Notes: generated by a model from the sequence alone, not told the origin. Shown: positions 3,249-38,988, counted from the stretch's first letter. The stretch is DNA of 64,000 nucleotides from Bacteroidota bacterium (GCA_040385525.1 JAZKHE010000005.1:96910-160909), one strand, 5' to 3'. Translations and numbers: made by a program.

Positions 3249-4505
3249 TTATGCTTTTGTTTTTTCTTCCCAAATAGCAGCTAAATTAACTATTGTAGCT
3301 ACTGCTTTTTCCATGTCTTGAACAGAAACCCATTCGTATTTAGAATGAAAAGCATGCTCACCAGCAAAAATATTTGGGCAAGGCAAGCCCATAAACGATA
3401 AGCGCGAACCATCAGTTCCGCCTCTAATACTAGTTAGTTTGGGCTCTATTCCAGTTCTTTTTACCGCTTCAATTGCATAGTCTGCAACTTCTGGATGTTT
3501 ATCTAAAACATCTTTCATATTTCTGTATTGTTCGGTTACAATAAAATCGAAACTTGATTTTTTATACGTTGAAATTATTTTTTCTACAATTTTATTTAGC
3601 TCATCTTCTAAGTGATTTAAGCCTTTTGTGGTAAAATCTCTAATTATAAATTTAATTTCAGCTTTTTCTATCGTTCCGCTAATTGATGTAGGGTGGATAA
3701 AACCTTCTTTTTGTTCTGTTGTTTCGGGCGACATTGTATTTTTAGGTAGTTGTGCTATAATTTCAGATGCAATTTTTATTGCGCTTTCCATTTTGTTTTT
3801 TGCAAAACCAGGGTGCGTGCTTACACCATAAATAGTAACACTTACGCCGTCAGCTGAGAAAGTTTCGTTTTCGATATGACCTAATTCTTCGCCATCAATA
3901 GTGTATCCAAAATCTGCATTTAATTTTTTTATGTCGAGCATTTCAACACCTCTTCCAACTTCTTCATCTGGTGTAAACAAAACACGAATGTCGCCATGCT
4001 TTATTTCTGGATTTTTTATTAAATGATGCATAGCATCCATTATCTCAGCAACACCAGCTTTGTTATCTGCGCCCAACAAAGTGGTTCCGCTTGCAGTAAT
4101 AATATCGTTACCAATTTGTTTTAATAGTGAAGGATGTTTTTTAGAAGATAAAACAATACTTGTGTCGTCGGGCAAAACAATATCGTCGCCATTGTAATTG
4201 TTGTGTACAATTGGTTTTACGTTTTCGCCACTACAATCGGGCGATGTATCCATGTGCGAACAAAAACAAATAGTAGGAATTTTTTTTGAAGAATTGCTTT
4301 TTAATGTTGCAAAAACATAACCATGCTCATCCATGTGAGTATCGGTTAAACCCATTTCTAAAAGTTCAGCAACAAGAATTTTAGCAAGATTTTTTTGCTT
4401 TTCAGTACTGGGGAAAGAGGTTGAATCTGGATTAGATTGTGTATCAATAGTAACGTAGTTTAAAAAACGTTTTGTTACTGTATTGGTGTAGTTTTGAAGT
4501 GACAT
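3249..4505 (-). CDS. pepT: peptidase T (tripeptide aminopeptidase, M20B)
   Basis: 418 aa. M20 family metal-binding motifs (HMDT...D...GADNK..EE). Size typical of PepT. Confidence 0.8.
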   Translation of the reverse strand: MSLQNYTNTVTKRFLNYVTIDTQSNPDSTSFPSTEKQKNLAKILVAELLEMGLTDTHMDEHGYVFATLKSNSSKKIPTICFCSHMDTSPDCSGENVKPIVHNNYNGDDIVLPDDTSIVLSSKKHPSLLKQIGNDIITASGTTLLGADNKAGVAEIMDAMHHLIKNPEIKHGDIRVLFTPDEEVGRGVEMLDIKKLNADFGYTIDGEELGHIENETFSADGVSVTIYGVSTHPGFAKNKMESAIKIASEIIAQLPKNTMSPETTEQKEGFIHPTSISGTIEKAEIKFIIRDFTTKGLNHLEDELNKIVEKIISTYKKSSFDFIVTEQYRNMKDVLDKHPEVADYAIEAVKRTGIEPKLTSIRGGTDGSRLSFMGLPCPNIFAGEHAFHSKYEWVSVQDMEKAVATIVNLAAIWEEKTKA

Positions 4506-5278: not shown

Positions 5279-5590
5279 TTAACTGTGTTTTTCAATAATT
5301 TGTTTTAAGTAATCTGCAGGCACAACACCCGATTGACGCCAAACAATTTGTCCGTTTTTAAACAATGCAAGTGTTGGAACGCCTTGTATTTGGTAAAAAG
5401 CCGCTGCTGATGGATTTTTGTCTACATCTACCTTAATAATTGTTGCTTTGTCGCCAATTTTAGTTTTTAAATCATCTAAAATGGGTTTCATTGTTTTGCA
5501 AGGACCACACCACTCGGCAAAAAAATCGACCAAGGTTGGTTTATCACTAGAAATAATTGTGTTAAATGAATTTGCTGACATATTTGACAA
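5279..5590 (-). CDS. trxA: thioredoxin
   Basis: 103 aa with canonical WCGPCK active site. Confidence 0.85.
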
Positions 5591-5605
5591 GTATAAAGTT
5601 ACACG

Positions 5606-5851
5606 TTATTTTACTTCTTCAAAATCAATTTCATGTGTTGATTTTGTGTTTTCTTTTTTTGTAAAGTTTGTATTGCATGAGTTTACACCACAACAGCCCC
5701 AATTAAATAGCGCTTGAACTAATAGCAATGTGCAAATTAAAATTACTGGTAAATCATAATTTACAATTGCGCCAACTCCAAAAAACAAACCTGCTACAAG
5801 TCGTAACCAGCGCATAAAATGCCATGGCGTATTTATAATTCTGTCTATCAT
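5606..5851 (-). CDS. DUF2892 (YgaP-like) small membrane protein
   Basis: 81 aa with two transmembrane helices and a C-terminal Cys-rich NWGCCGVNSC motif, as in rhodanese-associated YgaP C-terminal domains. Overlaps the upstream rhodanese gene by 4 nt. Confidence 0.55.
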   Translation of the reverse strand: MIDRIINTPWHFMRWLRLVAGLFFGVGAIVNYDLPVILICTLLLVQALFNWGCCGVNSCNTNFTKKENTKSTHEIDFEEVK

Positions 5852-7592: not shown

Positions 7593-8627
7593 TTATTCTT
7601 CTCTATCGAAAAGACTTCCTTTAAATGCTTTTGGAATTTTGCCTAAATGTTTGTAGGCTAAATCTGTTGCTTCTCGTCCGCGAGGTGTACGCATCAAATA
7701 ACCTTCTTGTATTAAAAAGGGTTCGTACACTTCTTCTATCGTATCAGATTCTTCGCCTACAGCGGTAGAAATTGTGTTTAAACCGACAGGGCCACCTTTA
7801 AATTTATCAATTAATGTAGAAAGGATTTTTATATCCATTTCGTCTAATCCATTTTTATCTACATTTAGTGCGTTTAGTGCAATTTGAGCAATTTCAATAT
7901 CAATTGCGCCATTCCCTTTTACTTGCGCAAAATCTCTAGTTCTGCGTAACAACGCATTTGCTATACGTGGCGTTCCTCGGCTACGGCGTGCAATTTCGTA
8001 TGCAGCCACTTCATCAATGTTTACGTTTAGTATATCTGAAGAACGGGTTACAATACCAGTAAGTAATTTAGAATCGTAATATTCTAATCTCGAATTAATA
8101 CCAAAACGCGCACGTAGCGGAGATGTGAGTAAGCCAGAACGTGTTGTTGCACCAATTAATGTAAAAGGATTTAAACCAATTTGTATGCTGCGTGCATTTG
8201 GTCCGCTATCTAACATAATATCTATGCGATAATCTTCCATAGCAGAATACAAATACTCTTCTACAATTGGGCTTAAACGATGAATTTCATCAATAAATAA
8301 AATATCGTTGGGTTCTAAATTAGTAAGCAAACCTGCTAAATCGCCTGGTTTATCTAACACTGGGCCCGATGTAATTTTTATGCCTACACCTAAATCGTTA
8401 GCAATAATATTTGCTAAAGTTGTTTTTCCTAAGCCTGGAGGGCCGTGTAACAAAACGTGATCTAAAGCTTCTTTACGTTGTTTTGTTGCGCTAACAAATA
8501 TTTTTAGATTTTCTACTACTTTATCCTGTCCCAAAAAATCGTCGAATGATAGTGGGCGCAACGCCTTATCAACTTCTTTTTCGGTTGGAGAAAAGTTTTC
8601 GTTAGTAGGATCTAAATTTTCATTCAT
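7593..8627 (-). CDS. ruvB: Holliday junction branch migration helicase RuvB
   Basis: 344 aa. Walker [15 protein letters not shown]+ fold, RuvB-type C-terminal region. Confidence 0.95.
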
Positions 8628-8708
8628 ATTACAAAGATAGAACTTATAGTAATTGCGAATGAATTCGTTTAATATTTATTCTGATAAACAAATGCAAAGT
8701 TTACTTTA

Positions 8709-8823
8709 CCACATAGTTACATAGCAAATTATTGCTGTATGTTAGAAAGTAGTACATAGAAATTTTCGCTTGCGAAAATCTATGTTAACTTTTATCTTTA
8801 ATGGATCCTATGTTTCTATGTGG
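8709..8823. repeat. MITE-like palindromic intergenic repeat, copy A
   Basis: Termini CCACATAGTTACATAG ... CTATGTTTCTATGTGG are inverted. Central palindrome TTTTCGCTTGCGAAAA. A second copy lies at 37753-37871. Confidence 0.6.
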
Positions 8824-8879
8824 TGAAAAAGAATAGTACTTATGCTTGTTAGACTGCTTCGTTCCTCGCAGATAAAAAA

Positions 8880-9503
8880 CTACAAGTACTTATTGTATTT
8901 CGATTTTGGGAAAAGCGTTTTATACAAAATATCCCAATAGATAAGCGTTTTAAAAGTGTAGGTTGGACTTTGAAATTCGTTACCTAATTCTTTGTTTTTT
9001 ATAATGTAGTACCTAAATCCTAAATCTAAACCAATACCAAACCATTTTATAATTTTATATTGGCCTGCAATGCTTGGCTCGTATAGCATTACAAATTTTT
9101 GATTAGTATTTGCGTTTGGATATTTTATATACGAGTTGCCTAAACCTATTTGAACAGGAATTGCAAACTCCCATTTGCCTTTGTTGTAAAAAACATAATC
9201 GGCAAAAATGTGGAAATAATCAATATTGTGTGTGCCAATTTCGCCTAAGCTGTTGGTAAACTGTTTACCATCTTTTAAATAGCTGTAACCAATTCCGTAA
9301 CGTGTTCGTCTATTAAACGAAAGCCCTAATTTAACGCCCGAAAACTGATTTATTTTACCATCAATAAACGTGTTTCTGCTGTCTAATTTGGCTACAATTC
9401 CTGGTCTACGTTTTAAATCTTTGTTAATAGTATCTAACAATTGTGCTTTAGCGGAAAGGCTTGCTAAAACAAAGATTACGAATATAAAACGCTTTGCTGT
9501 CAA
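8880..9503 (-). CDS. putative outer-membrane beta-barrel protein (hypothetical)
   Basis: 207 aa. Signal peptide, alternating aromatic/hydrophobic pattern with Y/F/W-rich strands, C-terminal aromatic-rich end. Confidence 0.45.
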   Translation of the reverse strand: MTAKRFIFVIFVLASLSAKAQLLDTINKDLKRRPGIVAKLDSRNTFIDGKINQFSGVKLGLSFNRRTRYGIGYSYLKDGKQFTNSLGEIGTHNIDYFHIFADYVFYNKGKWEFAIPVQIGLGNSYIKYPNANTNQKFVMLYEPSIAGQYKIIKWFGIGLDLGFRYYIIKNKELGNEFQSPTYTFKTLIYWDILYKTLFPKSKYNKYL

Positions 9504-9652: not shown

Positions 9653-10762
9653 TTATTTTGTTAAAGTGATAGTATAAGTATCAGTGTAAGATAAATCAGC
9701 TGTAGTACCATCGCCATCACAATCGTTAGAATCTTTTTCAACTCTTTCTAAAACGATAGAAGTTGCAGAAGCAGATTTAACAACATAAACACGATCATTA
9801 TCTTCACCCATTTGGTTAGAAGATGTAATGCTTGTGTTAACAAAGAAATCAGCACTAACTCTAACATGAGTTTCGTCAATTACAGTAAAAGAACCTTGAC
9901 CACCTAAAACGTTTCCAGCAATTGCAGTAGAGTTAGAACCACCTTGGTTAGCCCAAATTGCAGAGTAAATGTTTCCATCGTTGTTAACAGAGATAGAAGA
10001 TAATCTAGCTGATAAAGTACCAGCAGCACCACAACCAGGGAAAGCAGCATAAGCTGAACCAGTTAATGAAGCTGAAGTAGCTACTGACCATTTACCATTT
10101 AACATTTCTGATAAATTATAAGCATTAGAACCAGTTACAGTAACATCAGATGAAATCATAGTTTTGCTTTCACCTTGGTAAGCATATAAAGTAACTTTAT
10201 ACGCTCCAGAAGTTTGAGGAGTCCAAGAGAAAGAATTAGTGTTTGAGTTCCAAGAATCAACTTCAATCCAAGTTGGACCTTGAATTACTAATTGGTAATC
10301 AACGTTATAGCCTTTGTTAGCAGACTCATCAGTTGTATTTTTAATAACAACTGCTTGACCTGTGCTTGGAGAAGCAACAGATAATTCCATAGTAGGAGCA
10401 ACTGTTTGAATAGTTACTGTTGCAGAACCAACATAAGTTTTACCAGAACGTTTTTGGATGTTTCCAGTTTTCATTACTTGTTGAGTAATAGTGTAAACAC
10501 CAGCTTTTTCGTAAGTGTGAGTTGGGTTGATTTGAGAAACTCTGCTCCAGTCACCAATTTCGTTTGATTGAGAACCATCACCAAAATCGTAAACAACTAC
10601 TGTATTTTTTTTGTATTTTTCGTTGTTGTCTTTAACTTTTACTGGCTCACCAACCCAAGCAGTTGGGTTTTCAACTGTAAAATCAGTTTCTTTTTTACAA
10701 GCAACCAATGCCATAGATGCTAATAGCACTAATGACGTTCCTTTTAAAATATTTTTTTTCAT
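9653..10762 (-). CDS. PKD-like domain lipoprotein (paralog 2 of a tandem pair)
   Basis: 369 aa. Lipoprotein signal (LVAC), YDFGDGS PKD-type motif. The first ~30 aa are identical to the upstream paralog. Confidence 0.55.
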   Translation of the reverse strand: MKKNILKGTSLVLLASMALVACKKETDFTVENPTAWVGEPVKVKDNNEKYKKNTVVVYDFGDGSQSNEIGDWSRVSQINPTHTYEKAGVYTITQQVMKTGNIQKRSGKTYVGSATVTIQTVAPTMELSVASPSTGQAVVIKNTTDESANKGYNVDYQLVIQGPTWIEVDSWNSNTNSFSWTPQTSGAYKVTLYAYQGESKTMISSDVTVTGSNAYNLSEMLNGKWSVATSASLTGSAYAAFPGCGAAGTLSARLSSISVNNDGNIYSAIWANQGGSNSTAIAGNVLGGQGSFTVIDETHVRVSADFFVNTSITSSNQMGEDNDRVYVVKSASATSIVLERVEKDSNDCDGDGTTADLSYTDTYTITLTK

Positions 10763-10797: not shown

Positions 10798-11910
10798 TTA
10801 CTTAGTTAAAGTAATTGTATAAGTGTCATTGTAAGTATCAGCAGCTGCAGTACAGAATGAATCACCTTTAGTAACTTTTTCTAAAACGATAGATGTAGCA
10901 GAAGAAGATTTAATTGTATATAAACCATTAGCTCCAGTATTGTAGTTAGATGCAGTTGTGCTAGTGTTTACAAATAAACCATTTTGTTCAGTTGTAATAC
11001 CTTTATTGTTAAAGCTTACGTTAACTAAACCAGCATCAGTTACATAAATTGAACCTAAACTTTCTTCAACGTTACCAGCAACTGTAGTAGAGCTAGCTCC
11101 ACCTTTGTTTGCCCAAACACCTGAATAGATATTTCCATCGTTATTTAAGCTAATAGAAGAATACATTGGAGCATAAGTTGCAGCTAAACAACCAGCACCA
11201 TAAGAAGCACCTGTTAAAGAAGCAGTTGCAGCAACTGACCATTTACCATTTAATAATTGAGCAACACCATCAGCTCTGTCACCAGAAACAGTAAAGTCAG
11301 CACTTATCATAGCACGACCTTGACCTTGGAATGCATACATAATCATTTTGTGAGCACCAGAAGTAGATGCAGTCCAAGAAATTGGCCTTGTATCATTAGC
11401 ACTACCTACCCATTGAGTACCAGTTGGAGTTTCTACCCAATATTGGTAAGATGGAGTTGAACCTAAATTAGCAGACTCATCAGTAGTGTTTTTAATCCAA
11501 ATACCTTGGTCAGTGTTAACTGCAGTAGAAGATAATTCCATTGTTGGAGTTACCATTTGAATTGTTACTGTTTGAGAACCAGCGTAAGTTTTTCCAGAAC
11601 GTTTTTCAATGTTTCTAGATTTCATTACTTGTTGAGTAATTGTGTAAACACCTGGTTTGTTGTAAGTGTGAGTAGGGTTGATTTGCGCAATTCTGCTCTC
11701 ATCACCAATGTTTGTAGACGAACCATCGCCAAAATCGTAAAATACAGCTGTATTTTTTTTGTATTTTTCGCTGTTGTCTTTAATAACAACTGGTTCTCCA
11801 ACCCATGCAGTAGCATTAACCACTGTAAAGTCAGTTTCTTTTTTACAAGCAACTAAAGCCATAGATGCTAAAAGCACCAACGACGTTCCTTTTAAAATGT
11901 TTTTTTTCAT
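10798..11910 (-). CDS. PKD-like domain lipoprotein (paralog 1 of a tandem pair)
   Basis: 370 aa. Same N-terminus and domain layout as 9653-10762. The 5' ~90 nt of the two genes are nearly identical. Confidence 0.55.
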   Translation of the reverse strand: MKKNILKGTSLVLLASMALVACKKETDFTVVNATAWVGEPVVIKDNSEKYKKNTAVFYDFGDGSSTNIGDESRIAQINPTHTYNKPGVYTITQQVMKSRNIEKRSGKTYAGSQTVTIQMVTPTMELSSTAVNTDQGIWIKNTTDESANLGSTPSYQYWVETPTGTQWVGSANDTRPISWTASTSGAHKMIMYAFQGQGRAMISADFTVSGDRADGVAQLLNGKWSVAATASLTGASYGAGCLAATYAPMYSSISLNNDGNIYSGVWANKGGASSTTVAGNVEESLGSIYVTDAGLVNVSFNNKGITTEQNGLFVNTSTTASNYNTGANGLYTIKSSSATSIVLEKVTKGDSFCTAAADTYNDTYTITLTK

Positions 11911-19533: not shown

Positions 19534-21237
19534 ATGGCAACAGGAGGCTCACCCCGCGATAAAATGATTGGTATGATGTATTTAGTTTTAACCGCTTTAT
19601 TGGCGATGAATGTATCTAAAGACATTTTAAATTCTTTTATAGTTGTTAACGACGGCTTATCAAAAACCAATCAAGGATTTGAAAATAAAAACGCAGATAC
19701 TTACAATCAGTTTTCTAAATTGAGCGAAAAAGATGCAAAAGCAAAACCTTATTTCGATAGGGCGCAACAAGTGCAAAAGTTGAGTAAAGAAATGCGCGAT
19801 TATATTTTCGATATTAAGAAAAAACTATTGATGGTAATTGATAAAAAAGATGATACGGCCGCTGTTCGTATTCTTAAAACAAATATGTACGAAATAGATT
19901 CGAAAGATAATTATGACGAACCAACTCGTTTGTTAGGTTTGGGCGAGCCTACAAACCCAGCAAAAAAACCTGTTCAAGCTAATGGGCCAAACACAGCTTT
20001 TCAATTAAAAACTAAAATTGACGAAACAAGAGAAAAATTTTTAAAGCTAATTGCAGATGGCAATGGTGTTAAACTTTTGGCTACAGAAAAAACCGCTCTT
20101 GAAAAATCAATTAAAACCATTTTAAATACAGATGTTAAACGTATTGATAATGGTGTTGAAGAAGATTGGAGCGCAATTAATTTTTATCATATTCCGTTAG
20201 TTGCTGCAATAACCAACTTAACAAAAATGGAGTCGGATATAAACAATGCCGAAGCAGATATGGTAAAAACATTAATAGGTGCAGTTGGTGCAAACGATGT
20301 TAAATTCGATCAGTTTGAAGCACGTGTTTTAGCCGGCACAACTTATGTTTTACAAGGCGAAGAATTTAAAGCTGATGTAATACTTGCTGCAAGTAGTTCA
20401 ACACAAAAAAATAAAATGATTGTTGGTAATGTTGATACTGTAAAAAAAGAATTAATAGGCAACGGAACTGAGTTACAAATTGTAAGAGGTTTGGGAAAAT
20501 ACGCTGTAAAAACAACAGGCGAAGGTTTACAAAAATGGGGCGGTATTATTGAAGTAAATAAGCCTGATGGAACGGTAGAAAAATATCCGTTTCAACATGA
20601 GTATATTGTTGCTCGCCCAGCAGCAGCAACCTTTTTAAAAAAGATGAATGTTTTTTATATTGGCGTTGACAATCCAATATTAATAAGCGCTGCAGGTATT
20701 GCCGAAACAAATTTGCAGTACACAATTACTGGCGGTGGTGGAACTATAAAAAAAGGGAAAGACGAAGAAGGCAAAGATTGCTGGATAGCAAGGGTAACAA
20801 CACCCACGCAAAAACCCAATTTTGTAACCATAACCGTTAGCGATAAAACAAGTAAAAAAGTATTAGGCACTTTTAATTTTAGAGCAAAATCGTTGCCAAC
20901 ACCAACAAGTGTTTTGGGTGGACAAAGTGGTACTTTTCCAATGAGAAAATCGTTGTTAAGTGCTTTATCAGGTGTAACTGCTAAAATGGAAAATTTTGAT
21001 TTTGAATTCCCAATTAAAATTGTAAGTTTTAAGTATGAAAATTTTAGTGGTGCTAATTCAGCTTCTTATTCAAGCGAAACTAACGACAAAGGTGTAGCCG
21101 TTATGAGTGTAAAAATGAAAGACGACATAAGTAAATTAAAGGCAAATTCAAAAATTTATTTTACTGAAATAAAAGCTTTAATGCCCGATGGAAAAACACG
21201 AACACTGCCAGATATAGGCGTAAAAATTATTTTATAA
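19534..21237 (+). CDS. GldM/PorM-like protein (type IX secretion / gliding motility family paralog)
   Basis: 567 aa. N-terminus MATGGSPRDKMIGMMYLVLTALLAMNVSKDILNSF matches the conserved GldM/PorM N-terminal cytoplasmic stub plus single transmembrane helix (consensus ...PRQKMINLMYLVFIAMLALNMSKEVL). Long periplasmic region. No gldK/L/N adjacent. Confidence 0.55.
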   Translation: MATGGSPRDKMIGMMYLVLTALLAMNVSKDILNSFIVVNDGLSKTNQGFENKNADTYNQFSKLSEKDAKAKPYFDRAQQVQKLSKEMRDYIFDIKKKLLMVIDKKDDTAAVRILKTNMYEIDSKDNYDEPTRLLGLGEPTNPAKKPVQANGPNTAFQLKTKIDETREKFLKLIADGNGVKLLATEKTALEKSIKTILNTDVKRIDNGVEEDWSAINFYHIPLVAAITNLTKMESDINNAEADMVKTLIGAVGANDVKFDQFEARVLAGTTYVLQGEEFKADVILAASSSTQKNKMIVGNVDTVKKELIGNGTELQIVRGLGKYAVKTTGEGLQKWGGIIEVNKPDGTVEKYPFQHEYIVARPAAATFLKKMNVFYIGVDNPILISAAGIAETNLQYTITGGGGTIKKGKDEEGKDCWIARVTTPTQKPNFVTITVSDKTSKKVLGTFNFRAKSLPTPTSVLGGQSGTFPMRKSLLSALSGVTAKMENFDFEFPIKIVSFKYENFSGANSASYSSETNDKGVAVMSVKMKDDISKLKANSKIYFTEIKALMPDGKTRTLPDIGVKIIL

Positions 21238-24535: not shown

Positions 24536-24576
24536 AAATGGAAAAATATGGAATTCAATTCCAAATTTTTCCATTT
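24536..24576. repeat. 41-bp imperfect palindrome (copy 1)
   Basis: AAATGGAAAAATATGGAATT-C-AATTCCAAATTTTTCCATTT. Nearly identical to 25738-25778. Confidence 0.6.
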
Positions 24577-25725
24577 TTAAAGTAAATATTCTCTCCAATT
24601 TTGTATTTCAAAACCGTTGCTTCGATTTTGATTTTGAGTGCCAGCATAAAGAATTAAAGCTTTTTTATTTCCACTTAATTTATTCCAATAATCAATATTT
24701 TTAAAAAACTCGGCGGTAATGGTTTTGCCCGATTTTATTTCTATTGGCAAAATGCTGTTTTTTTCTTCTGATAAAATATCTACTTCGTGACCAGTTTTAT
24801 CGCGCCAATAATACAGGTTAATAGGCGAGCCCAAATTTGTGCGTTGTTTTATTAATTCTGTTACCAACATTGTTTCAAAAATAGCACCACGCAAAGGGTA
24901 ATTGGCTATTTGTTTTGCGTTTTGTATTCCTAATAAAGAGCAAACTAAAGCTGTGTCGTAAAAATAAAGTTTTGGTCGTTTTACAATTGTTTTGTTGTAG
25001 TTTTTATAATAAGGTTTTAGCAGATAAATAATGTAACTGCTTTCTAAAATTCCTATCCACGATTGTATCGTTTTTACATCAACACCCGTTTCAATAGAAA
25101 ACGAACTATAATTTAATTCTTGTCCGCTTCTACCTGCTAATAAACGCATAAAGCGCTCAAACAAAAGCAAATCGCTAATGTTTTTTATTTGCCGAACATC
25201 GCGTTCAATGTATGTTTTTATGTAGTTAGCGCACCAATCGCTAGCCGGAATTTTTTGATCGTAAATTGGAGGATAAAATCCTTTAAACAAAATTTCGTCG
25301 TCGGTTTTTGCTAATAGTTTTTTGCTGTTTAATTCGGCAACAGAAAATGGTAATAAACTTAAATAACCAACTCTACCAGCTAAAGATTGCGATATGGTTT
25401 CTTGTAATAAAAAATTGTTAGAACCAGTTAGAATAAATAGTCCTTTCTTTTTAGAATTATCTAAAATCTCTTGCAGGTACGAAAAAAGTTCGGGTGTGCG
25501 TTGTACTTCGTCTAATATAGCTCCTTGTGGGAATTGCTCTAAAAAACCTCTTGGGTCGGACAAAGCAAAATTCCGAGTGTCTAAATTTTCGAGAGAAATG
25601 TAAGGTTTGGTTTTAAAAAGTTTTTTAACCAAAGTTGTTTTGCCCGATTGCCTTGCGCCAACAACAGCTACAGCTTTAAATGTTGCTGCAAGTTTTAATA
25701 GCCTTTTCTCTGCAATTCGGTTTAT
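24577..25725 (-). CDS. AAA+ ATPase, DUF4143/COG1373 family
   Basis: Walker A VGARQSGKTTL near the N-terminus, DUF4143-like C-terminal region. Likely start is Met23 of the ORF (MINRIAEKRL), outside the flanking palindrome. Confidence 0.7.
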   Translation of the reverse strand: MNRIAEKRLLKLAATFKAVAVVGARQSGKTTLVKKLFKTKPYISLENLDTRNFALSDPRGFLEQFPQGAILDEVQRTPELFSYLQEILDNSKKKGLFILTGSNNFLLQETISQSLAGRVGYLSLLPFSVAELNSKKLLAKTDDEILFKGFYPPIYDQKIPASDWCANYIKTYIERDVRQIKNISDLLLFERFMRLLAGRSGQELNYSSFSIETGVDVKTIQSWIGILESSYIIYLLKPYYKNYNKTIVKRPKLYFYDTALVCSLLGIQNAKQIANYPLRGAIFETMLVTELIKQRTNLGSPINLYYWRDKTGHEVDILSEEKNSILPIEIKSGKTITAEFFKNIDYWNKLSGNKKALILYAGTQNQNRSNGFEIQNWREYLL

Positions 25726-25737
25726 CATAAAACAAAT

Positions 25738-25778
25738 ATATGGAAAAATTTGGAATCCAATTCCAAATTTTTCCATTT
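25738..25778. repeat. 41-bp imperfect palindrome (copy 2)
   Basis: ATATGGAAAAATTTGGAATC-C-AATTCCAAATTTTTCCATTT. Confidence 0.6.
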
Positions 25779-25783
25779 TGTTT

Positions 25784-37752: not shown

Positions 37753-37871
37753 CCACATAGAAACATAGAAAATTTTAGGTTTATAGGTTAACATAGTTTT
37801 TCGCTTTGCGAAAAATGCTATTGTTTACTATGTTTTCTTTTTTAATACTCAATTGCTATGTGCCTATGTGG
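37753..37871. repeat. MITE-like palindromic intergenic repeat, copy B
   Basis: Termini CCACATAGAAACATAG ... CTATGTGCCTATGTGG. Central TTTTTCGCTTTGCGAAAAA palindrome. Related to 8709-8823. Confidence 0.6.
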
Positions 37872-37884
37872 TTAGAGTTTTTAT

Positions 37885-38988
37885 CTATAACCACTTTTTT
37901 CTTCTAAAATAAATTAATAAACTTATCATTATTGCTAACATAACAGCCCATGTTGCAGCATACCCATAAGGACTTTCTAATTCGGGCATAAATTTAAAAT
38001 TCATACCATAAACACCTGCAATAAAAGTAACTGGGATAAAAATGGTTGAAATAATGGTGAGCACTTTCATCACTTCATTCATTTTGTTACTCATGCTGCT
38101 CATGTATAAATCCATCATGCCTGCTACCAAATCGCGGTAACTTTCTGTTGTTTCAATTACACGTAAACTATGGTCGTACACATCTCTAAAAAACAGTTGC
38201 GTGTCTTTCGTTATTAAATTCGAGTCGCTTCTTTCAATGCTTGAAATTAGTTCTCTAATGGGCCAAATAGATTTGCGAAGTGCAATCATTTCGCGTTTCA
38301 TGTAATATAATTTTTGTAACGTTTCGGGCGTAGGCTTTATAATTAATTCTTCGTCTAAATCTTCTAAACGTTCACCGATTTTTTCTAGAATAATAAAATA
38401 AGCATCTACAATACAATCGATTAATGAATAGGCTAAATAATCGGCGCCAAACTTTCTTATTTTTAAGTTTTCTTGTTTAAGCCTTTGTCTTATTGGGTCA
38501 AAGGCATCTTTTCCTTCTAATTCTTGAAAGGTAATAACTAAGTTATCTTTAAGAATAATTGATAGTTGTTCAGAATATATTTTGCTATCAAATTCATACA
38601 ACATTTTCATAAAAGTCATATCGTAATCATCGTAGCTTTCAAATTTAGGACGTTGGTCTGGACTAATTACATCTTCTAAAGAAAGCGCATGTATGTTAAA
38701 TATTTCTCCAATTTTTTTTACAATGGCTGTGTCATGAATTCCTTCAACGTTAATCCATTTTATTTTTTTTGAATGCTTAAACGCTGTGCAGTCATCAATG
38801 TTATCTAAAATTACTTCATTGTAACTTGTTGCGTCGTATTCAATAACAATTATTTTTGTTTCAGGTGCTGTTTCTCCTGTAATTCTTTGAATTAAGGTTC
38901 CAGGAGGTTGGTGAACATTTTCCTTTTTATCAGGAAATAATTTTAATTTTTTATTTCTAATATAATTTTTACTCATGTTTTCCTTCAA
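37885..38988 (-). CDS. corA: magnesium/cobalt transporter CorA
   Basis: 367 aa. YGMNF (GMN) motif before two C-terminal transmembrane helices. Confidence 0.85.
   Translation of the reverse strand: MKENMSKNYIRNKKLKLFPDKKENVHQPPGTLIQRITGETAPETKIIVIEYDATSYNEVILDNIDDCTAFKHSKKIKWINVEGIHDTAIVKKIGEIFNIHALSLEDVISPDQRPKFESYDDYDMTFMKMLYEFDSKIYSEQLSIILKDNLVITFQELEGKDAFDPIRQRLKQENLKIRKFGADYLAYSLIDCIVDAYFIILEKIGERLEDLDEELIIKPTPETLQKLYYMKREMIALRKSIWPIRELISSIERSDSNLITKDTQLFFRDVYDHSLRVIETTESYRDLVAGMMDLYMSSMSNKMNEVMKVLTIISTIFIPVTFIAGVYGMNFKFMPELESPYGYAATWAVMLAIMISLLIYFRRKKWL

Follow-up and report, generated by a model that had tools for sequence, protein, structure and literature searches.

CATAG palindromes between Bacteroidota genes: a family of small repeats and its probable kinship with GxxExxY nuclease-gene cassettes

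The DNA considered here is a stretch of 64,000 nucleotides from a Bacteroidota bacterium (GCA_040385525.1 JAZKHE010000005.1:96910-160909), called the window in what follows, and the subject is a small palindromic element that occurs in it twice, both times between open reading frames (ORFs). Copy A lies between two minus-strand genes, 56 nt past the stop of an ORF of 207 amino acids (aa) and 81 nt ahead of the start of ruvB. Copy B lies between an alpha/beta-hydrolase gene on the plus strand and corA on the minus strand, which converge on it, at 19 and 13 nt from the two stops. The arms of these palindromes recur in many genomes of the phylum, and there they also bracket genes of a nuclease family, the GxxExxY proteins. 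The parts of the two copies and their surroundings are as follows.

8705-8827, no strand: entire copy A, counting the further 4 nt of inverted repeat on each side (from sequence, alignment and folding)
8709-8724, plus: left arm of copy A, CCACATAG-TT-ACATAG, two CATAG units
8754-8759, plus: inner (third) ACATAG unit of copy A
8763-8778, no strand: central hairpin palindrome of copy A, TTTTCGC-TT-GCGAAAA
8780-8785, minus: inner CTATGT unit of copy A, complement of the inner ACATAG
8808-8823, minus: right arm of copy A, CTATGT-TT-CTATGTGG
8655-8879, no strand: block including copy A, approximate extent; close relatives lack it between the corresponding genes
7593-8627, minus: ruvB, host gene downstream of copy A, context and not element (Pfam)
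37753-37871, no strand: copy B, whole element
37753-37768, plus: left arm of copy B, CCACATAG-AA-ACATAG
37791-37796, plus: inner ACATAG unit of copy B
37798-37814, no strand: central hairpin palindrome of copy B, TTTTCGC-TTT-GCGAAAA
37828-37833, minus: inner CTATGT unit of copy B
37856-37871, minus: right arm of copy B, CTATGT-GC-CTATGTGG
37885-38988, minus: corA, host gene with its stop 13 nt from copy B, context only

Copy A is 115 bp long and copy B 119 bp, with interiors of 83 and 87 nt. A first-pass annotation of the window had placed an element at 8709-8823 upstream of ruvB; these coordinates are right, and Pfam supports the identity of ruvB. The termini had been described as reverse complements of each other, which is true of 14 of 16 positions: CCACATAGTTACATAG at 8709-8724 faces CTATGTTTCTATGTGG at 8808-8823, and the exceptions are the 2-nt spacers inside the arms (TT and TT in copy A), unpaired in both window copies. 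Outside the arms of copy A the inverted repeat reaches 4 nt further per side, to 8705-8724/8808-8827. To the left and right of the centre, counting confirms three CATAG and three CTATG units, respectively, in copy A as claimed and in copy B as well. The palindrome reported at the centre of copy A is there, TTTTCGCTTGCGAAAA at 8763-8778; its counterpart in copy B is TTTTCGCTTTGCGAAAA at 37798-37814, and in both a T run precedes the stem.

The second, diverged copy at 37753-37871 does have the same termini and centre, and the likeness extends beyond these: a full-length alignment of the copies shows the arms, the inner CATAG pair and the central hairpin as conserved blocks, and the spacers that separate them as diverged. 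The prediction of one long imperfect hairpin was borne out by folding of both copies on either strand (z -5.0 to -6.6). In the window CCACATAG was found four times against 0.86 expected, a number that none of 100 shuffles reached, and its sites are the four termini of copies A and B and nowhere else; the centre motif occurs twice against 0 expected.

How far does this element extend beyond the window? The family was defined as CACATAG-NN-ACATAG ... CTATGT-NN-CTATGTG, with inverted arms 70-100 nt apart, and both window copies fit the arm pattern with 0 mismatches. A scan of one genome per species for CACATAGNNACATAG-N70-100-CTATGTNNCTATGTG gave at least 120 stretches, and the early suggestion of a dispersed family missed by gene annotation is thereby upheld. 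Most of the matches listed come from Flavobacterium; the others listed include Saprospiraceae, Chitinophagaceae, Sphingobacteriaceae/Pedobacter, Cytophagales and metagenome-assembled genomes (MAGs) of Bacteroidales, together with Algoriphagus, Cecembia, Fluviicola, Epilithonimonas, Chryseobacterium, Paludibacter and Prolixibacteraceae. The two-arm pattern had no match in 2.9 million viral contigs, and a BLAST search of plasmids with two copies found none.

For family statistics, 129 copies were collected from loci picked by the arm pattern, about 1.02 Mb. Their arm consensus is TTTAA(A/C)CACATAG(AA)ACATAG: the arms are direct arrays of heptads, not hairpins, with CACATAG units in tandem at a period of 8-9 nt, usually after TTTAA(A/C), in elements of 100-130 bp. 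Two flanking positions are conserved outside the search pattern, an A at -2 (128/129 left arms, 126/129 right arms) and a T at -5 (112/129 left, 104/129 right); T at -4 and A at -3 are each found in only about two thirds of copies, while the next position inward reaches 99%. In the window the left arm is preceded by TTTAC in copy A and TCCAC in copy B, so that A stands at -2 in both. The commonest unit layout, in 64 of the 129 copies, is again three CATAG and three CTATG. In Flavobacterium the third pair is contiguous with the arm and abuts at the centre (ACACATAG against CTATGTGT); in an alternative layout, that of the window, it lies near the centre and flanks one or two short hairpins. The same 1.02 Mb holds about 24 further copies and 24 single arms, and the resulting density, about one further copy in every 25-40 kb, is in line with the two copies of the 64-kb window.

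Interiors are unrelated between lineages. Within one Saprospiraceae genome, copies in both orientations are homologous over their full length, and their interiors are about 65% identical, as judged by eye, against nearly identical 24-nt arms. This contrast is not due to ascertainment alone, because the third repeat and the outer flank lay outside the search pattern. That the arms are much more constrained than the rest of the element could reflect selection in place, or it could mean that only lineages with intact arms multiply. A literature search with the consensus arm (the CACATAGAAACATAG form and variants), with REP and MITE (repetitive extragenic palindrome; miniature inverted-repeat transposable element) in Flavobacterium, and with GxxExxY found no description of the family, and the general MITE/REP surveys it returned cover Bacteroidota genomes only in bulk. 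The family is real, ordinary in kind, being a small intergenic palindromic repeat, and apparently undescribed.

Several individual loci (L with a number) deserve mention. CATAG elements form tandem or concentric clusters in L092 (650-900), L005 (5200-5650), L050 (7578-8000), L060 (6840-7180) and L113 (1354-1640). In L092 several left arms come first and several right arms after them, with ATTTTTGGA(A/T) and TTCCAAAAAT as separators, and in L005 three tandem copies adjoin a GxxExxY gene. The units of L050 recur every 174-176 bp with their flanks included, which points to tandem duplication rather than separate insertions. At L089 (7684-7826) the palindrome is perfect for 15 bp into both flanks (TCGTGTTGATTTAAC ... 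GTTAAATCAACACGA) and has a perfect 19-bp inner stem; it looks recently formed or homogenised. Perfect elements in L023, L102 and L108 stand on MAG contigs labelled Pyrinomonadales (Acidobacteriota) and Candidatus Nitrotoga (Betaproteobacteria), and could represent mis-binned Bacteroidota contigs or transfer outside the phylum. Palindromes of like construction but with the unit CACGAAT(T), GCCACGAATTGCACCAATTATCACGAATT ... AATTCGTGTAATTCGTGGC, occur between Flavobacterium genes at L111 5735-5825 and in element flanks in L002, L055, L065 and L096, and CACGAAG units bracket a GxxExxY gene in L196; this suggests several sister families in one genus. A further recurrent Flavobacterium palindrome, GTCAGGCTGAGCGGAATCGAAG ... 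CTTCGACTTCGCTCAGGGTGAC, lies between genes beside CATAG elements (L074 about 4040-4110, L047 about 1940-2000, L043 about 5540-5620).

The next question is what else these arms enclose. Among the single arms, two have the start of a small ORF within about 10 nt, and a motif search of all fetched Bacteroidota loci (about 1 Mb) found four GxxExxY ORFs. Two of them encode full-length proteins, and these match TIGR04256 'GxxExxY protein' and Pfam PDDEXK_3 at E values of about 1e-38 to 1e-39. All four ORFs lie at most about 330 nt from CATAG arms, and in three an arm is at most about 35 nt from the start codon. When arms up to 600 bp apart were scanned, GxxExxY was the only ORF found between them. 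Two clean cassettes from Flavobacterium give the picture. That of L210, within a pyrimidine-catabolism operon, reads CCACATAGATACATAG, 58 nt, ATG, 137 codons, TAA, 3 nt, CTATGTATCTATGTGG; that of L212 reads CCACATAGAGACATAG, 9 nt, ATG, 140 codons, TAA, 1 nt, CTATGTTTCTATGTGG.

A further 80 metagenome loci encoding GxxExxY relatives were fetched, and most have 3-4 tandem units of about 8 nt just before the ATG, often after AAC, and an inverted set just past the stop. The cassette thus consists of an arm, 10-115 nt, an ORF of about 136 aa, 1-125 nt and an inverted arm. The unit differs from locus to locus.

CACATAG: L138, L159, L173, L184, L191
CACAATAG: L155, L157, L158
CATATAAG / CATAAAAG: L142, L145, L153, L156
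CACTAAG / CACTTAAG: L165, L166, L171, L172, L174
CATTAAG: L179
CGCAGAG, CACGGAG, CGCCGAG, CACGAAG, CACAGAG, CACAGAT: L175, L180, L182, L185, L186, L188, L192-196, L200-206, L208

The type of unit tracks the protein tree and not GC content, the CGCAGAG and CACAGAG types being found on contigs of 38-41% GC. Where enough flank was available, a 6-mer repeated in tandem with a period of 7-12 nt precedes the gene in 51 of 68 loci, against 97 of 400 random placements, and in 36 of the 68 its reverse complement follows downstream (random placements, 8/400). When the upstream flank of a gene is scored for inverted repeats against its own downstream flank, the median is 14.75, compared with 8.0 for mismatched pairs. 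Every complete ORF of 135-140 aa that follows a CATAG arm (15/15) is itself followed by CTATGT repeats. The neighbouring genes are mostly co-directional with the GxxExxY gene (48/58 upstream, 52/60 downstream), and smaller versions of 55-75 nt, made of the arms and a short loop, lie directly upstream of several GxxExxY genes.

As for the protein, D70, E80 and K82 are invariant in 25 orthologues and may be read as the D...ExK motif that defines PD-(D/E)XK nucleases. A survey of this superfamily in 2012 gave the function of the GxxExxY/PDDEXK_3 family as unknown (PMC3424549). The Flavobacterium orthologues are 78-94% identical, those with a name are all called 'GxxExxY protein', and one keeps the same context in three assemblies. 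No relative was found by sequence in the PDB, and the AlphaFold model is poor (mean predicted local distance difference test score, pLDDT, of 52), having been built from close homologues only.

Because CATAG arms bracket GxxExxY genes, the window palindromes are taken to be an ORF-less miniature form of these cassettes, with which they share the arms only. One peculiarity of the cassettes should be recorded beside this. At some GxxExxY genes a single left arm has two candidate right partners (L151 1129-1629; L210 2427-2933; L133, L148, L176, L177). The proximal partner would give a mini-hairpin before the ATG and the distal one lies after the stop; the two pairings are mutually exclusive and leave the ORF outside or inside the loop. 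Such an alternative could act as a switch.

Where do the ORF-less copies sit? They are almost always intergenic: only 2 of the 129 fall inside crudely called ORFs, with 84% of the sequence coding. Per kilobase of intergenic DNA there are 2.5 copies between convergent genes, 1.27 between tandem genes and 0.65 between divergent ones: the more gene 3' ends a region has, the higher the density. Between tandem genes the median distances are 31 nt from the upstream stop and 70 nt to the next start. A Flavobacterium subfamily (n=54) has an asymmetric interior, with a box GTGAAACGCC and a small hairpin of varying sequence, and can be oriented; of 35 copies in tandem contexts, 30 point the same way relative to the flanking genes. 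A weak hairpin and then a T run are present on the strand that is usually antisense, and the other orientation may be selected against inside operons, which explains the bias only partly. An intrinsic terminator, as a GC-rich stem and T tract, was looked for and rejected, no terminator-like site being present in 8550-8950; beside the element a canonical terminator lies on each side in only 2 of the 54 oriented copies. Known binding sites fared no better when compared by eye. A DnaA box conflicts with the invariant A at -2, and a parS half-site, a XerD arm and the Bacteroidetes -7 promoter box were set aside as single half-sites or as dependent on a variable spacer.

Such a small, numerous, intergenic element with terminal inverted repeats, variable between relatives, invites comparison with a classical MITE, that is, an insertion sequence with an internal deletion, mobilised by a DDE transposase that acts on the terminal inverted repeats and leaves a short target duplication such as TA or TTAA. 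A 2-bp duplication, perhaps TA, had been named at first pass as a point to check. No excess of direct repeats was found at boundary offsets of 0-8 and lengths of 2-8, in a test that a duplicated TA or TTAA, being palindromic, could formally escape; the signal for inverted repeats is clear, and the flanks prolong the inverted repeat instead. The palindromic TTAA consensus flank on both sides could hide a duplication, yet T at -4 and A at -3 fall away to about two thirds of copies beside a position conserved at 99%. The arms, moreover, are tandem heptads and not a single transposase-binding end, and the only ORF found between them encodes the 136-aa protein of the PD-(D/E)XK family. The unpaired arms in the loci could be traced to elements that are decayed, truncated or GxxExxY-containing, and not to genes for transposases. 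A classical MITE is for these reasons improbable. A transposase between paired copies was also sought and rejected, the genes between two copies in L002 and in L039 being housekeeping genes, and among the neighbouring genes in the loci examined, which is short of a genome-wide search, no Y1 transposase adjoins a copy. The broader REP/MITE-like label given at first pass survives in part: these are short ORF-less elements that share their termini with a longer ORF-bearing one, but the features of REPs and their RAYT (REP-associated tyrosine transposase) genes are absent, and the partner is not a known transposase.

Presence varies between close relatives. In L213, a contig 93% identical in nucleotides over 8.5 kb, and in L124 the space from the 207-aa gene to ruvB is only 19-25 nt, where the window has about 213-225 extra bases, copy A included. 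At the same site L121 and L122 carry a different repeat-bearing insertion. For copy B, a relative with an 83% identical CorA has a decayed copy directly past the corA stop (CCACATAGTAGCGTAG ... TTGAAGCTAAGCTTCAA) with a different central hairpin. Elsewhere, in ten pairs of Flavobacterium species both members have a perfect-armed copy between the same neighbouring genes, whose proteins are 49-98% identical, and the comparison of L074 with L111 reveals a polymorphic Flavobacterium site that is occupied by a different repeat.

Two other features of the copy A site are worth noting. An imperfect 16-nt direct repeat (13/16; 8639-8654 and 8885-8900, AGAACTTATAGTAATT and AGTACTTATTGTATTT) brackets the block absent from L213 and L124, and could be chance or the trace of a block insertion. 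At 8836-8894 (core 8854-8871) a 9-nt direct repeat, AGTACTTAT, surrounds a segment of 41 nt in which CTGCGAGGAACGAAGCAG occurs. In the opposite orientation and with one mismatch, this 21-mer is found again upstream of ruvB in L121/L122 (L121 about 3760-3790), where it sits in the different insertion of about 200 bp with two copies of TTACGTAGCTCGT(T/C)ATTGCGATA; the repeat at 8836-8894 may be another small mobile or invertible element.

Are the palindromes perhaps kept by the host itself? They would then be REP-like elements selected in place, either as binding sites for a protein that reads CACATAG units or as hairpins that stabilise or terminate the upstream mRNA, and the GxxExxY genes would merely use the same hairpins. 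The ten orthologous pairs speak for this, with the qualification that they were ascertained on perfect arms in both species. The far better conservation of arms than interiors, the enrichment near gene 3' ends and the orientation bias of 30/35 fit equally, as does the absence of matches on plasmids or in viral contigs, and so does the fact that in the intervening sequence (IVS) of the 23S ribosomal RNA (rRNA) of Coxiella an unrelated ORF stands between similar arms. Against it, the distribution is patchy: the first 120 matches listed include many Flavobacterium and no Bacteroides or Prevotella, and close relatives lack copy A or have a different repeat there. Furthermore, 14-16 copies lie between divergent genes, where no transcript ends, and a terminator-like T tract is missing. 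On balance, maintenance by the host is an unlikely account.

Another candidate is a conserved structured regulatory RNA, small RNA or cis-regulatory, with its function in the fold, and this too had been suggested from the start. The folding z of -5 to -6.6 would suit it, and interiors have a mean z of -1.46 compared with -0.24 for random genomic segments. In the Flavobacterium subfamily small hairpins of different sequence stand at the same position, and the orientation bias points the same way. These inner hairpins are weak, however, at -1.8 versus -1.0 kcal/mol for shuffles, and RNAalifold on the 54 aligned copies gives the terminal stem only, with almost no compensatory change. Partition-function folding leaves about 50% of the interior unpaired, whichever strand is taken. 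The two strands fold equally well, the interiors of different lineages are unrelated, and there is no association with a particular gene family. At gathering thresholds Rfam gave no match and no rRNA in the whole window; for the element at E up to 10 the best sub-threshold match has 25 bits against a threshold of 90, and 20 cassette loci gave none. The suggestion of a structured RNA does not hold up well against these data, and we regard it as very improbable.

The reading we prefer, with a probability of roughly 0.6, is that this family of ORF-less intergenic palindromes is a miniature form of the GxxExxY cassettes, with a stem like that of an IVS, propagated via a factor that reads the heptads. 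How might it work? Insertion would place an element directly downstream of a host gene, and read-through from that gene would transcribe it. In the RNA its arms would pair into a long stem, of 14 bp with an internal loop in the window and of 21 bp in the Flavobacterium consensus. Laid out like the stem of an ORF-bearing 23S rRNA IVS, this stem would act in the host mRNA as a processing site or a 3'-end structure. Persistence and multiplication would depend on the factor reading the heptad units, and the best candidate would be a GxxExxY nuclease acting in trans and encoded by a cassette at another place in the genome. The parts of this scheme do not all carry the same weight. The anatomy, the family, the arms in common with the GxxExxY cassettes, the position by gene 3' ends and the variable presence between relatives are seen in the sequences themselves. 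Co-transcription with the upstream gene, with the stem cut by RNase III or protecting the 3' end, is plausible by analogy, at a little less than even odds. The proposal that a GxxExxY nuclease reads the units, and so moves or maintains cassettes and miniatures alike in trans, much as RAYT would do with REP elements, is tentative and on present evidence somewhat doubtful.

Several observations weigh against the scheme. The block missing from the relatives, about 213-225 bp, exceeds the 115-bp element and holds other repeats, and a transposition junction is not resolvable at the copy A site, the regions upstream of ruvB being compact or having other repeats. No GxxExxY sequence was found by tblastn in the 64-kb window, so that a source in trans is an assumption. 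None of the Flavobacterium cassettes examined was found to contain the interior of the Flavobacterium subfamily, with its box GTGAAACGCC and small hairpin, so that simple deletion within those cassettes does not account for the miniatures. The folding of the two strands differs by a mean of +1.0 kcal/mol, with the sense strand more stable in 34 of 79 cases, and there is thus no G-U signature of selection on RNA. RNase III needs no unit sequence, yet the heptads are conserved; this, together with the lack of strand asymmetry in folding, speaks against a role at the RNA level only. In Coxiella similar arms enclose an unrelated ORF, S23p, which may indicate that the arms are not read by the product of the ORF they enclose. 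Finally, the unpaired 2-nt spacers may mean that both window copies are old and decaying.

A wider idea goes beyond the preferred reading. CATAG palindromes, the GxxExxY cassettes of many phyla and the ORF-bearing 23S rRNA IVSs might be one unrecognised class of selfish hairpin elements, with arms made of arrays of a C-N-C-N-N-A-G-type unit, in which the PD-(D/E)XK protein would recognise the units and move or maintain both cassettes and miniatures. This is speculative, and we think it more likely wrong than right. If it were true, the GxxExxY/PDDEXK_3 proteins, which are numerous in bacterial genomes, would gain a role for a family of unknown function, and there would be a concrete candidate answer to the question of how rRNA IVSs spread.

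Apart from this idea, a very abundant unannotated intergenic repeat of Flavobacterium and other Bacteroidota, a gene of a nuclease family and the layout of rRNA IVSs are now joined. The link of the repeat family to the gene and to the IVS construction is well supported, and it was unexpected. There is a practical side as well: the elements mark many gene 3' ends and intercistronic regions, and because they can affect the processing of operon mRNA and break up assemblies, they should be annotated.

The window holds other repeats. One, unrelated to the CATAG family, is a near-perfect palindrome of about 40 nt, AAATGGAAAAAT(A/T)TGGAAT(T/C)CAATTCCAAATTTTTCCATTT, in three copies within 5 kb.

20983-21015: first copy of the palindrome of about 40 nt
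24536-24577: second copy
25738-25779: third copy

The other is a pair of adjacent minus-strand paralogues, 9653-10762 (369 aa) and 10798-11910 (370 aa), whose aligned segments have 80-84% nucleotide identity; the first has a PKD domain.

It remains to compare the family with systems already known. Integron attC sites are likewise imperfect palindromes, of 57-141 bp with a variable centre, and their outer boundary AAC ... GTT is seen in about 40% of CATAG copies. Tandem heptads do not characterise attC, and in the cassette form of the CATAG family the ORF lies inside the palindrome rather than beside it. The CATAG family has neither an integrase nor a cassette array, and its copies are dispersed among housekeeping genes.

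The REP/REPIN-RAYT systems share more features: many short extragenic palindromes together with a nuclease-type gene flanked by the same repeats, a gene (here GxxExxY) kept at orthologous positions, tandem clusters (as in L005, L050, L060 and L113) and a location near gene 3' ends. On the other hand, the CATAG family has no GTAG-headed REP hairpin, and its arm is not itself palindromic. The associated protein is of the PD-(D/E)XK superfamily and not an HUH Y1 transposase, and the repeat is constant across genera instead of species-specific.

Closer in outline are the MITEs, such as Correia/NEMIS of Neisseria, RUP of Streptococcus pneumoniae and ERIC/IRU of enterobacteria. These too are imperfect palindromes of 100-150 bp with conserved termini, present in tens to hundreds of intergenic copies and often co-transcribed with their neighbours; their presence varies between relatives, and their termini are common with those of a longer, ORF-bearing element. 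What sets the CATAG family apart is the lack of a detectable target-site duplication, arms that are arrays of a 7-nt unit, an ORF-bearing partner that encodes no known transposase, and an arm sequence common to several classes of the phylum.

The last comparison is with the IVSs of 23S rRNA. Short versions without an ORF are found in Salmonella and Campylobacter. For both small-protein families, GxxExxY and S23p, database descriptions note members within such IVSs. The IVS of Coxiella burnetii, of 428 nt, has a 28-bp terminal stem, whose 5' arm carries three tandem heptamers, GACAGAT, directly before an ORF. This ORF encodes S23p, a small protein that folds as a four-helix bundle and has no known function. 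The stem is cut at the first repeat by RNase III, and the origin and mobility of 23S rRNA IVSs have been an open question since about 1990 (PMC4990558). The parallels are several. The window elements, too, have terminal inverted repeats that pair into a long stem with tandem heptamers in it. The three GACAGAT of Coxiella resemble the CACAGAT units of the GxxExxY cassette in L205, heptamers preceding the ORF in both, and IVSs and GxxExxY cassettes alike hold in their loop a small ORF of unknown function. The window elements are proposed to be transcribed within a host transcript, as IVSs are, and the mechanism of mobility is unknown in both. The differences are equally plain: the window elements lie between protein-coding genes and not in helix 9, 25 or 45, their unit is CACATAG with a period of 8-9 nt, and they have no ORF, that of their relatives being GxxExxY and not the four-helix-bundle S23p. 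Because they are found outside rRNA, with no Rfam rRNA in the window and with flanking genes that encode proteins, they are not members of the IVSs; by analogy of layout, they are best described as IVS-like in construction.

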